Positions 10,881 to 18,232 of a stretch of 32,000 nt of DNA are shown piece after piece. The translations under genes and the position numbers were made by a program. The notes under the pieces are model-generated. The model did not search any database and was not told where the DNA came from. It saw only the letters and a program-made list of their open reading frames with translations. The stretch comes from Geobacter metallireducens GS-15. Lineage in GTDB: Bacteria; Desulfobacterota; Desulfuromonadia; Geobacterales; Geobacteraceae. Positions within the stretch are counted from its first letter, which is position 1, and every line of letters starts with the position of its first letter. The stretch is from NCBI RefSeq assembly GCF_000012925.1, contig NC_007517.1, forward strand, positions 2,340,001-2,372,000, in the 5' to 3' direction.

Positions 10881-11074
10881 GCACTTTTTTCTTCACGCTC
10901 CGGCCACGTCGGTGCCACCTGAAGCGGAATCGTGAAATTACCGGATGTTGTGGAGAAGTTCGGGGAATCGGGAGAAAACCTGGTGTGAGCACGGCGTCAC
11001 ACATTCATGATTTTTAATTTCTATTTCATCAAAAGTTGCGTATAGTTGCCGAAATTCCCTGCCCCGAGAGAACA

Positions 11075-11425
11075 ATGAAAACCCGCCTCATTCTCAAACC
11101 CGGTCAACGTGGCACCAAACGTCTCTCCGATAAATACGGCGACAACCTTGTCTGTGTGCGCTTCAGATATGATGCTGCAACTCGACAACGGATCAAAACG
11201 GTTGAACTTATTGTCGAGCGCATAGACTGGAACCCACCACCAGAGAAATTTTCCGCAGATACCCTTGTTGCGGTAAAAATTGAAGGCTATGAAATCGACC
11301 ACCGTAAAAAGATCAAAGAAGCCGGAGGGAAATGGAACCCGGACAAGCGTCTCTGGTACGTCAGATATGGCGCAATTGCGGGAACAGAACTAGAAAAGCA
11401 TATATATGTAGATACAACAGGATAA
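11075..11425 (+). CDS. Small hypothetical protein (116 aa). The C-terminal IKEAGGKWNPDKRLWYV resembles the DUF5710-type motif seen on some plasmid or phage primase and topoisomerase tails.
   Basis: The ORF has an ATG at 11075; the track start at 11036 is TTG. It is the first gene of the AT-rich islet. The family resemblance is from memory only. Confidence 0.5.
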   Translation: MKTRLILKPGQRGTKRLSDKYGDNLVCVRFRYDAATRQRIKTVELIVERIDWNPPPEKFSADTLVAVKIEGYEIDHRKKIKEAGGKWNPDKRLWYVRYGAIAGTELEKHIYVDTTG

Positions 11426-11526
11426 GTGGCGAAACGTATCGAAGCATCTATATGTAAATGCATCACAGTCATATACCGGTAGATGCAAGCATCTACATAT
11501 ATATGCAGGCATCTACCGTTAGATGC
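11398..11526. repeat. Dense array of direct and inverted GCATCTA / TAGATGC motifs and nested palindromes
   Basis: GCATCTA occurs at 11444, 11489 and 11509. TAGATGC occurs at 11480 and 11520. There is a perfect 16-bp inverted repeat: GCATATATATGTAGAT (11398-11413) with ATCTACATATATATGC (11491-11506). Palindromes are TAGATGC-AA-GCATCTA (11480-11495) and GCATCTA-CCGT-TAGATGC (11509-11526). Confidence 0.7.
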
Positions 11527-11604
11527 ATTACTCTAACTGCTCAATAACGGGTTACCGAATAAAAAACAGACTGCTCGGACCCAATCTGATCCGGAGGATT
11601 ACAA

Positions 11605-12078
11605 ATGGGAAAATCTGAAATGCTGAGAGAGGTGCTGCTTAAAGAATATGACACTATGCGAACAGAGATTAGATTGTATATTGGTAAATACTACATCGCC
11701 ATAACGCTAATTTATACCATATTATCAGCTGGATTATTAAAAGAAAATCCGACCGAAAACAATGGGATGATATATATATGGATACCCTACATAATAGCTG
11801 CCATCATCGGCTTTATGACAATGATAACGTTTTACGTTAGCAAGATGGTTGGATACGTCCGCCTCATCGAACTTAGGATTGCCAAGAGCTTCGGTACAGA
11901 ACCACCCCAAAATAAAGCAGCGGTTCCTAAGAAAATACTGCTAGCACCTCTGTTCTGGGAATCTACTTACGCAGATATCGACATGAATCGTGATAGCGGA
12001 AGGCAATTAGTAAGTCCATTCTTTCTATCAGTATCTGTAATGGTAATATCTGCTTTGACAGCCTTAGCAGGTTGTTGA
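11605..12078 (+). CDS. Small membrane protein (2-3 predicted TM helices); its 3' end is replaced by the IS5 insertion
   Basis: GGAGGA lies 8 nt upstream of the ATG. Hydrophobic stretches are YYIAITLIYTILSAGLL, MIYIWIPYIIAAIIGFMTMITFYV and LVSPFFLSVSVMVISALTALA. The last three codons and the stop (GCA GGT TGT TGA) lie inside the IS left inverted repeat. Confidence 0.6.
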   Translation: MGKSEMLREVLLKEYDTMRTEIRLYIGKYYIAITLIYTILSAGLLKENPTENNGMIYIWIPYIIAAIIGFMTMITFYVSKMVGYVRLIELRIAKSFGTEPPQNKAAVPKKILLAPLFWESTYADIDMNRDSGRQLVSPFFLSVSVMVISALTALAGC

Positions 12079-13408
12079 AAAACTAAACCTTTTTGATTCA
12101 ATAAGTTAGCGAACTGTGCTATATTTTTACGCGTAACAATCTGAATTTACAGGAGAAAAGTTATGCGCGGCGCCGAGACAAAAACCGAAGCTCTGTTCTG
12201 TTATCTCTCCCCTGAGTCGTACGTCCCGAAGGACCACCCCTTGCGGTCGATCAGGGCGATGGTGGATAAGGCCCTTGCAGAGCTCAGCCCGCAATTCGAG
12301 GCCATGTACTCCCACACCGGCCGGCCCTCGATTCCTCCTGAGCAGTTGCTTAAAGCACTTCTGCTTCAGGCGCTGTACACCATCAGGAGTAACCGTCTGC
12401 TGGTGGAGCAGATCAGCTACAGCATCCTGTTCCGCTGGTTTGTGGGATTGGCCCTGGACGAGAAGGTCTGGGACCACTCCTCGTTTTCCACCAACCTGGA
12501 GCGGTTGATCGATACCGACGTGGCACGGCTGCTCTTGGCAAAAGTAGTTGAGCAGGCCCGAAGGGCAAAGCTGTTGTCCGACGAGCACTTCAGCGTTGAC
12601 GGCACCCTCATCGAGGCGTGGGCTTCTATCAAGAGCTTTCGGCCCAAGGATGGACCAAAGCCTCCAGTGGGTCGTAACACGGAGCGTGATTTCCACGGCG
12701 AAAAGCTCAAAAACGACACCCATGCCTCCACCACCGATCCGGATGCGCGGATTGCCAGGAGAAGCTCGGGCAAAGAGGCGAAGCTCAGTTACCACGGGCA
12801 CGCTCTCATGGAGAACCGCAACGGGATCATCGTCGATGCCAGAATCACCCACGCAACCGGTACCGCTGAGCGGGATACCGCAGTCGAGATGATCGCAGAC
12901 GTCGCCGGTAACAAGCGGATCACCATGGGCGGCGACAAGGGCTACGACACCAAAGAGTGCGTCAAAGATCTGCGAGCACTCAAGGTAACCCCTCACATTG
13001 CTCAGAACACCGCTAACCGCCGCTCAGCCATCGATGGCAGGACTACCCGCCACGAAGGCTACAAAACCAGCCTGAGGATTCGCAAGCGGATCGAAGAGGC
13101 CTTCGGCTGGCTCAAGACTGTCGGCAATCTCCGCAAGACCCGGCATCGGGGAATAGCGAAAGTCGACTGGTACTTCACCATGGCCATTGCGGCATACAAT
13201 CTGGTCCGGCTGCGCAATCTCGGGACGAAAACGGCATAATCAGGGGAATAATGCGACTCTTGGTGGCAAAGCCCGCCCGAAAAGGCCAAATCAAGGTAAA
13301 AAGCAAAGTTTCAAAGAACGAATAGGGCGAGATCAATGCAACTATCGGCCTAAAATGATCTCCTTGAAGGGGATTGCCCTGGAAATGAAGGAGTTTTTCA
13401 ACGGCCTG
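12068..13408 (+). mobile_element. IS5-family insertion sequence, 1341 bp, complete
   Basis: Terminal inverted repeats are CAGGTTGTTGAAAAACT (12068-12084) and the reverse complement of AGTTTTTCAACGGCCTG (13392-13408), matching at 15 of 17 positions. They are flanked by a direct TTAG (12064-12067 and 13409-13412). The element has a single transposase gene and a higher GC content than the surrounding islet. Confidence 0.8.
12163..13239 (+). CDS. IS5-family DDE transposase (358 aa)
   Basis: The N-terminal InsH-type domain is present (SIPPEQLLKALLLQALYTIRSNRLLVEQISYSILFRWFVGL). A C-terminal DDE region is present (DKGYD..., EEAFGWLK). AGGAGA SD. Confidence 0.9.
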   Translation: MRGAETKTEALFCYLSPESYVPKDHPLRSIRAMVDKALAELSPQFEAMYSHTGRPSIPPEQLLKALLLQALYTIRSNRLLVEQISYSILFRWFVGLALDEKVWDHSSFSTNLERLIDTDVARLLLAKVVEQARRAKLLSDEHFSVDGTLIEAWASIKSFRPKDGPKPPVGRNTERDFHGEKLKNDTHASTTDPDARIARRSSGKEAKLSYHGHALMENRNGIIVDARITHATGTAERDTAVEMIADVAGNKRITMGGDKGYDTKECVKDLRALKVTPHIAQNTANRRSAIDGRTTRHEGYKTSLRIRKRIEEAFGWLKTVGNLRKTRHRGIAKVDWYFTMAIAAYNLVRLRNLGTKTA

Positions 13409-13431
13409 TTAGAAATTGGTTATCTGAAAGA

Positions 13432-16400
13432 TTGCAATTTAAAGACGAATCCATGCAACAATTCGTTGCTGAGATCATTTCAGAAAATGACATCCTTCCT
13501 TTTTGGAACGATGAACTTTGGATATCCATTCTTCTTTCAGATCATTCAGCAACGTTTTTTGTATTATTCAAAGAAGAATTGCTCAGCAATGATCAGGCAC
13601 TATTAAAAAGACTGACCTTTCTGTTAAGGCTTGCCTGTAAGGATGTTGACAATGACTTGCTCAAGCTACTAGGGGTAGACGACTTAAATCTGTTATCAAT
13701 TAAATATGTGCTGACCAAACCTAAGGGTTCAGGCTGGCAAAATGCCATACGATTTATACATGATAATTTGGAAAAAATAGGCATTAAGAATATTCATTTT
13801 GCTCTCCCATTAATCCATGAATGGAATCAAAAGAATAGGCAGGGAGAGACAACAAAATCATCGAGCCTGATAGCCCTTAAATATTATCAATGGACAATTG
13901 AAGAGGATGTTTACCTGTCGAGAGGCGATGATAAAGAAAAGATATTGCAAACCATTCTCAGCGGAGCTTCCGAAATTAAGACTGAATTGGAGGGGATATT
14001 CAAGGAAGTTCTAGAAAATAAGTGGAACAATCATAGAGACCCTTATTATGATCTGATGAAAGTAATTCTGAAGGAGATGGATGCTCTTCCAGTTTGGGCT
14101 ATTTTCCCGGAACATGTCTTGGAAATAGCCGACTTATTTTGGTTCTATATTCCTCAAAAATATAACCATTACTACCATCGGATGGATATTGAAGACGAAT
14201 TTTGTTTAAATCATAGTCATTACGATTATTTCCCATCAAGTCCGTATCAAACACCCATCTATTGGCTACTTCAGTGTTCGCTCCAAAAAACCGTGGACTT
14301 CATCTTATCTTTCACAAACAAGACTGTTGAATGTTTTGCTAGTTCTAGTGTTGGAAAGAATGAAATAGAAGAAGCTGTCGTTATTATTGATGATCTTTCA
14401 ATAAAACAATACATATGCAACAAACTTTGGTGTATGTACAGAGGCACACAGGTTTCCACGCAGCTTCTTGAATCAATTCACATGGCTTTAGAAAAGTTCT
14501 TCCTTGAATCAGCCAAGAAGCAAGATTCAAAAATACTCGAAAGCTGGCTGATATATATTTTGAAGAACTCAAAATCTGCTTCGCTGTCAGCAGTAGTTAC
14601 CAGCATAGTATTAGCGTATCCAGAAAAGACATTTAATGTCGCTAATATACTTTTCCAGACAAAGCTTTTCTTTCTATATGATGTGAATAGGTTCAGTTTG
14701 GATCAGTCTCATAAAAGCTCTCTTCTCATGCTGAAAAAGAATTTTGGAGGAGGTAACTATAAAAATGCTCCCCATGAAGAAGAGAGAATAAAATCTTGCG
14801 ATGAACCACATAGAAAAGTGCATCTTGAAAATTTGGCATTAAATTATCAGTTTTTCAGGAGCGAAGAAACAAGCGAGGACGAGGCCAACGAGAGACAACG
14901 GGTCATTTGGTCTGTCTTCGACAAATATTATAGCGAGTTGCCCGATGAGACTAAAGAGAATGATGGCGATAAGACATGGAGACTCTTTCTTGCAAGAATG
15001 GATCGACGCAAGATGAAGCCAACAACCGAAGCGACAAATGATGGAGTTCTGATCAATTTCAATCCTGAAATTGATCCAAGGCTTAAGGAATATAGCGAAG
15101 AGGCTGTTAAGAAAAGTTCCGAGCCAATGAAATACATGTCGTTGAAATTATGGGCAAGTTACAAGAAGGACAAGGATGAACGCTTTAAGCAATATGTGCA
15201 GTATGAAAACAGCCCTCAACTCGCTTTAAAGGAAGTGAAGGAAATAATCGACAGGTTTAAAAAAGGAGAGGATGAAAGCTTCCATCTTTTCAATCGTTCC
15301 ATACCGGGAGAAGTTTGCTCTATCTTAGCTAAACATCATTTCGACAAACTTTCTGAAGATGAAAGAAATTTTTGCAAAGATGTTATTCTGGAGTATGCGC
15401 AAGCCTCACTAACGCCTAATTATCATTACCAGATTTCTGATGGAACCGACTCGGCTATTTCGGCATTGCCGACACTTCTGCAATATTATCCAGAAGAACG
15501 CGACGGCATAAAAATGATTCTGCTCCTTACCTTGTTTGATAATTCCTCGATTGGGATGTGGGGAGGCCATTATAGCGTTTTCCCCAGCATGGCAATTCAT
15601 CAATTGTGGGAAAGCCATTTTGATGACATGCAATCCTTGCTTATCGGATATCTGCTGCTTAAGCCCAGGCATGTAGAGATGAGGAGGAAGCTTCAACTGG
15701 ATGGCTACGAGAACGGGGTATATGAGATTCCCGATGGGCAGGACCTCCGGAACTTCTTTCAAGAATATGAGCCTGTTCTGGAAAGAGTTGCGGAGAACAA
15801 GGTATCAATATCTGATCTGAAGGATATTGAGCAAACAGATTTATACATCCTGAACACAGCCTTTCAACTTATTCCCTTGAAGACAATCCACGCCGAACAT
15901 ATAAAGTTAGCACTGACCATAATTGCAATCTTCGCCAGCCATCTATTGTCTCGCGATAAAAAGGACAAGGTTGACTATTCTGTCCGGCATTCATTCTTGG
16001 AAAGATTTACTTACCTTGTTCTGAATTCTTCCGAACAAGATGTTTCGGAATATCTGAAACCGTTCCTGGATAATTTCAACGGTTCAGAAACGGCGGCTGA
16101 GCTACTAGAGCAATTTGTTTTAGCCCAAGACCGGATAGATGCTTATGACCGGTTTTGGCAAGTTTGGACCCTATTTTTTGGGAAAATAGTCGCTCTGTGC
16201 AAAGATGGCGATGGATATTGGTACGTCGACAGGATTGTAAGGAGCTATCTATTCGCACAAACTCAATGGAAAGAAACGGCGACGGATTGGCATACTTTTA
16301 AGGACGGCAATAGCAAATTTTTCGCGGATGTTGCTAAAAATATCGGTCATTGTCCATCAGTCTTATACTCGCTTGCGAAATCGTTAAACGATATAGCAAG

Positions 16401-16647
16401 CAGATATCTTAATTTTGGAATTTCGTGGCTGTCAGGGATGATGACCGCCCATAAGCAATTGTGGACTTCAAAGTTGGAAACTAACACTCAATACTATCTT
16501 GAAAATCTTGTTAGGAAATATATCTACAAAGAACGCGAAAAAATAAGAAGGACTAAGCAGTTAAAAGAAGAGGTTTTGGTAATATTAGAATTTCTAATTG
16601 AGAGAGGCTCCGTTGTTGGATATATTCTGCGAGAAAATATCCTATAA
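13432..16647 (+). CDS. Large (1071 aa) AT-rich orphan protein, predicted all-alpha/helical-repeat, no recognisable catalytic motif
   Basis: A long uninterrupted ORF in 40%-GC DNA is unlikely to be a shadow ORF. The start is unclear: TTG 13432 or ATG 13453, neither with a convincing SD. I found no Walker A, HxH, DxD or Cys-cluster motifs by eye. Confidence 0.7.
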   Translation: MQFKDESMQQFVAEIISENDILPFWNDELWISILLSDHSATFFVLFKEELLSNDQALLKRLTFLLRLACKDVDNDLLKLLGVDDLNLLSIKYVLTKPKGSGWQNAIRFIHDNLEKIGIKNIHFALPLIHEWNQKNRQGETTKSSSLIALKYYQWTIEEDVYLSRGDDKEKILQTILSGASEIKTELEGIFKEVLENKWNNHRDPYYDLMKVILKEMDALPVWAIFPEHVLEIADLFWFYIPQKYNHYYHRMDIEDEFCLNHSHYDYFPSSPYQTPIYWLLQCSLQKTVDFILSFTNKTVECFASSSVGKNEIEEAVVIIDDLSIKQYICNKLWCMYRGTQVSTQLLESIHMALEKFFLESAKKQDSKILESWLIYILKNSKSASLSAVVTSIVLAYPEKTFNVANILFQTKLFFLYDVNRFSLDQSHKSSLLMLKKNFGGGNYKNAPHEEERIKSCDEPHRKVHLENLALNYQFFRSEETSEDEANERQRVIWSVFDKYYSELPDETKENDGDKTWRLFLARMDRRKMKPTTEATNDGVLINFNPEIDPRLKEYSEEAVKKSSEPMKYMSLKLWASYKKDKDERFKQYVQYENSPQLALKEVKEIIDRFKKGEDESFHLFNRSIPGEVCSILAKHHFDKLSEDERNFCKDVILEYAQASLTPNYHYQISDGTDSAISALPTLLQYYPEERDGIKMILLLTLFDNSSIGMWGGHYSVFPSMAIHQLWESHFDDMQSLLIGYLLLKPRHVEMRRKLQLDGYENGVYEIPDGQDLRNFFQEYEPVLERVAENKVSISDLKDIEQTDLYILNTAFQLIPLKTIHAEHIKLALTIIAIFASHLLSRDKKDKVDYSVRHSFLERFTYLVLNSSEQDVSEYLKPFLDNFNGSETAAELLEQFVLAQDRIDAYDRFWQVWTLFFGKIVALCKDGDGYWYVDRIVRSYLFAQTQWKETATDWHTFKDGNSKFFADVAKNIGHCPSVLYSLAKSLNDIASRYLNFGISWLSGMMTAHKQLWTSKLETNTQYYLENLVRKYIYKEREKIRRTKQLKEEVLVILEFLIERGSVVGYILRENIL
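13438..13466 (+). other. Candidate -1 frameshift site: T_TTA_AAG heptamer (13438-13444) followed by hairpin ACGAAT-N10-ATTCGT (13445-13466)
   Basis: The heptamer is in the X_XXY_YYZ phase of the IS-restored TM ORF frame. A -1 slip enters the 1071-aa ORF frame. The hairpin starts with no spacer, which is atypical. Confidence 0.3.
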
Positions 16648-16712: not shown

Positions 16713-16785
16713 TCTCCCCCGTTGGGCAATAAAAATGACAATTAAAGAACTCCATAAAATTCTTCTATTAATCGGCTTTGAAAAA

Positions 16786-16881
16786 TGACCCTACATAGGC
16801 AGTGGGTCAATCTTCCTTGGTAGCCTGATATCAATTAGTTATCAATGCTGGTGGGTCACCCTTAGACGCCGAAAAGGGTCA
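16786..16881. repeat. Four GGGTCA/TGACCC motifs clustered at the right edge of the AT-rich islet
   Basis: TGACCC is at 16786-16791. GGGTCA is at 16804-16809, 16853-16858 and 16876-16881. A direct ATCAAT...ATCAAT pair lies between them. Confidence 0.5.
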
Positions 16882-16897
16882 AAATTGGATGCCGATC

Positions 16898-18211
16898 CAC
16901 TACTGTCCGGTTAATAGTTGAATAAGTTCAGTTGGTTGCGCTCAGGATAATCAGCATTTCGCTTGAGAGCCTCCGCAACCAGCGATGAAATGGGCTTTTT
17001 CTCGAACAAGTTGACCTCCAGAATCTGTAGAAAAGTGTAGAGCGAACACGGAACCCCCAACTTCTTTTTCGTGATCGCCACCAGCAGATAGATGCACAAG
17101 GCAACCCATATCTGGCTCTTCACGGCATTGACTGACGTTCCGATGAACGACTTGATCCGCAGGTGCTGTTTGATCCATTTGAAAAACAGCTCCACCTGCC
17201 AGCGCTGCTTGTAAATCGCAGCCACCGTCGCTGCCGGAATCTCGAAGTTGTTCGTGAGAAATACGAGTCGCTTGTTCCGTTCTTTGTCAACATAGCTGAC
17301 CCGGCGCAGTTTCTCCGGATACCCCTTTTTCGACTTCTGCGTCACCAGGGTGATAATCTGGTCTGCCCGTACACCTGATTCCTTGTCCTTCGGATGGGAA
17401 TATAACCGCTGGCATTTCAGGTTGTCCTTTGCCCGAACTACGAAGAATGCTCCCTGCTTGTGGATGGAGTGGAGCCGGGCAAAATCGACATACCCTCTGT
17501 CCATCGTGTAAATGGCATCCTTTGCAACCGGCAGATGGTCCAGCATCCTGACATCGTGGACCTTGCCAGTGGTAATAGTGACCCAGGTCGGAATGGGACC
17601 ACGCAGATCAATGAGCGTATGCATCTTGACCGCCGCCTTGGTTTTGCGGAACTCGGCCCATGGGAACAGCGTAAGGCACAGGTCGATAGTGGTCGAGTCA
17701 AAGGCGTAGAGCGGTTGCGTAAGCTCAACGGAGATGGCATCAGCCTGGTACAGCTGCTGAGCTATGCCGATCAGTACATGACCGAAGTCTTGGAAGATAC
17801 GCCAGTCCCTGCGCTCGTTCGCGTCGGCAAGGGTCGTGCGGGAGACATCACCACGAAAGCCGATGTGGTACAGCTTCTCCTGGTGGGAGTTCAGGCAGGT
17901 CTCGATATCCCGCAAGCTCTCACGGCCAGCCATCTGGGCATAAGCCAGGCAGAGGAACTGGTCATAGGTCGAGAACTTCTTCTCCCGATACTCGCCACGG
18001 TGTCGGCGAACGCAGAGATTGAATTCGTACCGGGGCAGAAACTGCAGAAGTTGTTTGAAAACGGTCGGACCGGTGTGCATTGCTCCCCTCCTGTAAAGGG
18101 AGGAAGGCTACACTCAGAACGAATTCATGTCGAAAAAAGAACAATTGTGCCAAAGAGCAATAAAGTTCAACAAGTTACAGCTGTACAATCAAAGTTTACC
18201 GGACAGTAGTA
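16898..18211 (-). mobile_element. IS4-family insertion sequence, 1314 bp, complete
   Basis: The ends are CACTACTGTCCGGT (16898-16911) and ACCGGACAGTAGTA (18198-18211), an inverted match at 13 of 14 positions. They are flanked by a perfect 9-bp direct repeat ATGCCGATC (16889-16897 and 18212-18220). The transposase stop codon lies inside the left end. Confidence 0.8.
16911..18080 (-). CDS. IS4-family DDE transposase (389 aa)
   Basis: The N-terminal DUF4372-like region is present (FKQLLQFLPRYEFNLCVRRH...YDQFLCLAYAQMAGRESLRDIE). A DDE_Tnp_1-type core is present (AFDSTTIDL, YTMDRGYVDF, YKQRWQVELFFKWIKQ). AGGAGGGGAG SD. Confidence 0.9.
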   Translation of the reverse strand: MHTGPTVFKQLLQFLPRYEFNLCVRRHRGEYREKKFSTYDQFLCLAYAQMAGRESLRDIETCLNSHQEKLYHIGFRGDVSRTTLADANERRDWRIFQDFGHVLIGIAQQLYQADAISVELTQPLYAFDSTTIDLCLTLFPWAEFRKTKAAVKMHTLIDLRGPIPTWVTITTGKVHDVRMLDHLPVAKDAIYTMDRGYVDFARLHSIHKQGAFFVVRAKDNLKCQRLYSHPKDKESGVRADQIITLVTQKSKKGYPEKLRRVSYVDKERNKRLVFLTNNFEIPAATVAAIYKQRWQVELFFKWIKQHLRIKSFIGTSVNAVKSQIWVALCIYLLVAITKKKLGVPCSLYTFLQILEVNLFEKKPISSLVAEALKRNADYPERNQLNLFNY

Positions 18212-18232
18212 ATGCCGATCAACAAACGAAGT

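Follow-up and report, generated by a model that had tools for sequence, protein, structure and literature searches.

Avs proteins combine a variable N-terminal effector, a central nucleoside triphosphatase (NTPase) and an extended C-terminal sensor, and in Avs4 it is the phage portal protein that activates, with tetramers forming and activating the N-terminal nuclease (PMC11897194). Tetramerisation proceeds via the ATP-bound ATPase and draws the N-termini together (PMC13601566), whilst the Mrr nuclease mediates the tetrameric active arrangement (bioRxiv 10.64898/2026.08.25.746987). In 13 further Avs families, Avs4 not among them, deletion or mutation of the effector abolished cell death (PMC13581612). 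An intact Avs4 is a single-protein receptor: its long helical sensor binds the portal protein, the STAND NTPase tetramerises in an ATP-dependent manner, and the four N-terminal Mrr-like nucleases assembled in this way cut DNA and abort the infection. Here we describe an open reading frame (ORF) of 1071 codons in a 32,000-nucleotide stretch of the Geobacter metallireducens GS-15 genome (NC_007517.1, positions 2,340,001 to 2,372,000; this whole stretch is referred to below as the window, and positions are counted within it). The ORF is very probably what is left, as the 3′ two-thirds, of an avs4 gene gained by horizontal transfer, cut by a deletion associated with an insertion sequence (IS) and left behind as a recent, non-functional pseudogene fragment.

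Identity of the open reading frame

The frame is open on the forward strand from 13432 to 16647, which is far above chance, since shuffling its bases 200 times gave no stop-free run longer than 148 codons. Its guanine-plus-cytosine (GC) content is 0.39, against 0.59 in the window outside the islet of foreign composition to which it belongs, and it is flanked by an IS5-family and an IS4-family element. A first-pass annotation, made by a model from the sequence alone, had reported this open frame, its foreign composition and the two flanking IS elements, all of which are borne out. It had also seen neither a P-loop nor any assignable motif, and indeed the G-x4-GK[ST] P-loop (Walker A) motif was not found in the ORF product (P0001) and a Pfam search of it returned no match. 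The empty Pfam result is uninformative, because the Avs4 sensor has no Pfam model.

The Avs4 model of PADLOC places ORF residues 1-1071 on profile positions 500-1570 of 1570, with 1491.8 bits, and ORF residues 3-1071 align with chain residues 518-1587 of Escherichia coli Avs4 in PDB 8DGF (1501.7 bits). Among 8000 candidates scored there were 1333 relatives at E ≤ 0.001; the best 120 of these 1333 mostly measure 1560-1590 amino acids (aa), and NCBI gives several of them the name Avs4. The nearest relative found, P0002, is a protein of 1567 aa from a public metagenome assembly, which aligns with the ORF gap-free over P0002 residues 497-1567 at 91% identity. A search for longer homologues, of 1876-5000 aa, yielded none; at full length the protein has ~1567 aa. 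The NCBIfam equivalog NF041815 ("AVAST type 4 anti-phage nuclease Avs4") is matched over positions 511-1579 of 1579 with 1379 bits; its cut-off is 1500 bits, which P0002 passes with 2142.9 bits, and the ORF falls under it only because one third of the model is uncovered. Judged by these matches, the ORF is the back two-thirds, that is the sensor part, of the known antiphage receptor Avs4 (AVAST type 4), and it is an already-known kind of feature: a known family in a broken state. It had first been described as an orphan of undescribed function, a description that does not survive 1333 relatives, the best of them 91% identical, and matches to the Avs4 models. Better founded was the suggested likeness to a large STAND conflict protein that lacks its NTPase and is reduced to its C-terminal sensor or repeats, as the PADLOC, 8DGF and NF041815 matches all fall on the sensor part of Avs4. 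Clear homology to a characterised housekeeping family had been named as what would refute a new function; clear homology to a characterised family has indeed been found, although this family serves immunity and not housekeeping. Large all-helical ORFs of foreign composition that have no Pfam match and no P-loop should be compared with defence-specific profile libraries before they are labelled orphans.

EcAvs4, which reportedly goes back to Gao et al. 2022 (Science 377:eabm4096), is the E. coli protein in 8DGF, where it is in complex with the portal protein of phage PhiV-1. Its C-terminal ~1070 residues align throughout with the window ORF, and the Avs4 proteins of E. coli, Yersinia and Citrobacter share ~61-64% identity with it. 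The window remnant differs from EcAvs4 in missing ~488 residues, with the Mrr-like nuclease of the N-terminus and the entire core of the STAND NTPase. P0002, too, is intact: its sole Walker A motif (GIGGVGKT) lies at residue 214, its STAND and AAA Pfam matches lie at residues 192-345 and the effector lies N-terminal to these (Avs4 domain boundaries are taken here from Pfam matches and later papers), whereas the window copy, 91% identical over all 1071 residues, begins at the equivalent of residue ~488. The ORF leaves profile positions 1-499 (PADLOC) and 1-510 (NCBIfam) unmatched, and no NTPase Pfam match was found in it. When the whole 4.01-Mb genome (2 contigs, 4,011,182 bases) was searched in six frames with P0002 at E ≤ 1, the window locus alone was recovered, over residues 486-1567, so the N-terminal third has been lost and not relocated. 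What the ORF retains of an Avs4 is therefore the C-terminal helical sensor; the NTPase, the N-terminal Mrr-like effector and a score above the NF041815 cut-off are lacking and, by analogy with intact members, such a fragment cannot be expected to work as an Avs4.

Neither is the ORF a whole gene, as had been assumed at first. Homology to Avs4 starts at the end of the upstream IS (13409-13413), ahead of the TTG at 13432, which is merely the first permissible start codon within the fragment (Table 1). No Shine-Dalgarno-like sequence was seen by eye before this TTG or before the ATG at 13453, and a consensus scan upstream of the ORF found no promoter-like site.

Table 1 Coordinates of the avs4 remnant and neighbouring features in the window
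Feature	Position	Strand	Description
Small membrane-protein gene, 3′-truncated	11605..12067	+	First ~153 of about 215-250 codons left; uncharacterised family
IS5-family IS	12064..13412	+	Core 12068-13408 (1341 bp); transposase 12163-13239; TTAG at 12064-12067 and 13409-13412
avs4 remnant	13409..16647	+	Equals residues ~487/488-1567 of full-length Avs4; helical sensor region; without nuclease and STAND NTPase
IS4-family IS	16889..18220	-	Core 16898-18211 (1314 bp); transposase 16911-18080; 9-bp ATGCCGATC duplication on both sides

The upstream insertion sequence marks a deletion joint

The transposase of the upstream element matches Pfam DUF772 and DDE_Tnp_1, and the element has a terminal inverted repeat (I6). 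Six other full-length copies are present in the genome, all 100% identical to the window copy, and 4-bp YTAR duplications surround them: TTAG at the window copy, and CTAG, TTAA, CTAG, TTAA and CTAA at the five others for which both flanks were read. With its DUF772 DDE transposase, inverted repeats and 4-bp YTAR duplication, the element has what characterises the IS5/IS1031-like family. Copies include those at C1:313990, 1190563, 2532859, 2830624, 3264067 and 3692532, with seven full or nearly full in total, and the element also occurs as several fragments and as a diverged (87-91%) interrupted copy at C1:2878311-2881643. This distribution indicates recent, active transposition of the element in the genome.

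The genes on both sides are cut exactly at the IS, which therefore marks a deletion joint. Homology to Avs4 begins within two codons of the right end of the IS. When the IS and one TTAG are removed in silico, the Avs4 frame reads ...FDSLRNWLSERLQFK... where P0002 has ...RRSFRNWLSERLQFK..., and in this IS-free reconstruction all frames upstream of the joint hold only the junction residues and nothing else that is Avs4-like. A deletion with the IS5-family element at its joint removed the avs4 promoter, start codon, nuclease and NTPase (~487/488 codons), and the same deletion took the 3′ ~70-95 codons of the membrane gene together with whatever lay between both genes. We infer that it likely came about by one of two routes, either homologous recombination between a pair of IS copies in direct orientation, both of which had gone into a TTAG, or intramolecular transposition into a second YTAR site.

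State of the remnant and alternative histories

The remnant exhibits no detectable decay. A relative-rate count with eight ~75-79% identical relatives as outgroup assigned 41 changes to the window branch and 29 to the P0002 branch (p = 0.19), and of 242 columns that are at least 95% conserved in 99 other near-full-length relatives, only two are altered in the remnant, both conservatively (R to K and I to V). Together with the 100% identity of the IS copies, this absence of decay points to a recent event, and the intact frame then needs no selection. If the remnant is made, it might, by analogy with complete Avs4, still fold and bind the portal protein. Being without the ATPase and the effector it would be unable to oligomerise, signal or kill, and on the same comparison a loss of function is inferred for it.

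Several points weigh against a recent, functionless product of an IS-associated deletion. The TTAG that recurs unchanged at either end of the IS bears the mark of simple insertion rather than of a deletion mediated by the IS; the 1071-codon frame is fully open and shows no accelerated change, which would fit continued selection on a sensor-only product; and the transposase gene is co-directional and reads towards the remnant, so that read-through transcription is possible. As to the second of these points, a recent IS event explains the open frame equally well as selection does.

The matching TTAG could mean that the truncation of avs4 and of the membrane gene, and their fusion at a TTAG microhomology, came first, perhaps even before the arrival of the islet in this genome, and that the IS5-family element was inserted at the joint later by simple transposition. 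Such a history would account for the same TTAG standing on either side, just as duplications stand at the five other copies read, and for a sequence that is continuous once the IS and one TTAG are taken out. It would, however, require the IS to hit the exact earlier joint, within two codons. Moreover, each TTAG can be explained as native to its own gene, the one by a conserved TTA Leu codon in the homologues of the membrane gene and the other by Phe/Leu-Arg codons of Avs4, which is the residue expected from two YTAR insertions followed by IS-IS recombination. As two independent YTAR sites match by chance at ~1/4, the identical TTAG weakens the deletion route but not the truncation, and we regard the prior joint as unlikely, though with some probability left to it. 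The gene is truncated under either history.

The open frame and the orientation of the transposase gene bear on another possibility, namely that the remnant is expressed as a sensor-only product, for instance through read-through from the transposase gene, and has a function of its own as a portal-protein sponge or as a modulator of another Avs. The frame is intact and without measurable decay, the transposase lies upstream on the same strand, and N-terminally shortened Avs4 entries do exist in databases. These short entries, like the window remnant, consist of the sensor region without the N-terminus, but they start at a dozen positions scattered between residues 82 and 678, as fragments from contig ends or broken genes would; in the window, unlike in these entries, the cause of the truncation can be read directly as an IS-marked deletion joint. 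The absence of a promoter-like site in the consensus scan, and of a Shine-Dalgarno-like sequence by eye, also argues against a sensor-only product. There is, furthermore, no other Avs4 in the genome to modulate, 13 other Avs families needed their effector for activity (PMC13581612), and the identical IS copies point to a recent event that leaves the frame intact without selection. We therefore consider a functional sensor-only product very unlikely. Still less probable is the more specific idea of a freed sensor, transcribed from the IS, that acts as a non-lethal portal-binding sponge or serves as raw material for a new sensor-only immune factor; if it were true, a free Avs4 sensor would be the counterpart in bacteria of truncated NLR-derived decoys. 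Read as a recently broken avs4, the locus raises no new question about immunity.

The truncated membrane-protein gene

Upstream of the IS5-family element lies a small membrane-protein gene, which is probably Gmet_2090. As an open frame it extends over 157 aa (11605-12078), the last three codons and the stop of which come from the IS end. In a library of 1.84 billion proteins its family comprises 25 representatives at E ≤ 0.001, mostly 215-250 aa long. Residues 6-155 of the membrane protein align with residues 1-150 of the homologues, and the match ends at ~153-155, exactly at the IS; a search of the rest of the genome did not recover the missing C-terminus. Seven other Avs4 loci, from isolate genomes or metagenome-assembled genomes, contained no homologue of the membrane protein, and no Avs4 was present in eight metagenome loci with the membrane gene, although the downstream flank extends over 2-6 kb in several of these eight. 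A plasmid collection likewise held no homologue of the membrane protein. The first-pass annotation had proposed the conserved neighbourhood of the two genes as a check on their partnership, and the check thus came out at 0/7 Avs4 loci and 0/8 membrane-family loci.

That the 157-aa and 1071-aa proteins make up an undescribed membrane-anchored system, in two parts or fused by a frameshift, has next to no chance of being right: the two genes do neighbour each other in one low-GC islet and share a strand, but the large ORF is an Avs4 fragment by PADLOC, 8DGF and NF041815, the membrane gene has lost its own 3′ end and belongs to a different family, of 215-250 aa, removal of the IS leaves both frames out of phase (the membrane frame would continue through out-of-frame avs4 sequence), and the pairing is absent from the 15 other loci.

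The closest relative of the membrane protein, P0122 (77% identity), is encoded in a metagenome defence island (L020:6690-9246), directly downstream of genes for an AbiLi-like AAA_21 ATPase (PADLOC AbiLi, 339 bits) and a PglX-like type IIG methyltransferase. The P0122 gene is followed there by a 172-aa ORF, which also adjoins the membrane gene in a further locus, L022. It is conceivable that the membrane protein serves a small defence module as a membrane effector that has gone unrecognised. An AbiLi-like partner was considered for the membrane gene, but it occurs in L020 only and is absent from the other loci and from the window.

Genome context and distribution

The genome of G. metallireducens GS-15 consists of a 3,997,420-bp chromosome and the 13,762-bp plasmid pMET1 (PMC2700814). 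Butler et al. 2007 give Gmet_2091 and Gmet_2093 as IS elements in a 300-kb aromatics island, near oah/bamA (Gmet_2088) (PMC1924859), and since the window ORF stands between these two elements it is Gmet_2092. Its annotation should become that of a 5′-truncated avs4 pseudogene, and that of the upstream membrane gene a 3′-truncated gene. A search of 11 same-genus genomes turned up no Avs4, which fits a horizontal acquisition of avs4. The locus is a small, clean case of an active IS eroding a horizontally acquired defence islet, within an aromatics island and beside the bam benzoyl-CoA genes.

A piece of the C-terminus of Avs4 was observed in a same-order genome (L010, G020:C41:56769-57179, minus strand), where it is 83% identical to residues 1431-1567. 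Its frame is interrupted by one TAA, and the piece is cut off by the end of the contig.

Right edge of the islet and other features

The transposase of the downstream element, on the reverse strand, matches Pfam DUF4372 and DDE_Tnp_1, and the element has a terminal inverted repeat (I12), the flanking 9-mers having been read directly. This IS4-family element went into the right edge of the islet by simple insertion, leaving the avs4 remnant untouched. A 134-bp stretch (16764-16897), which ends exactly at the IS4 insertion site, has an inverted 93% copy at C1:2574576-2574709 and holds several GGGTCA motifs; it may be the end of another mobile element.

Upstream of the membrane gene, the stretch 10960-11604 is unique in the genome. 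It includes a 116-aa ORF (11075-11425) with a GC content of 0.46, for which a weak C-terminal match to Pfam DUF5710 was found (E = 7.8e-4, below the cut-off) and which had no NCBIfam or PADLOC match. Between this ORF and the membrane gene, at 11396-11525, are three direct 21-nt repeats (AAGCATCTATATGTAAATGCA-like) with a spacing of 45-46 nt, interleaved with a perfect 16-nt inverted repeat (11398-11413 with 11491-11506), an arrangement that looks like an iteron or operator array.

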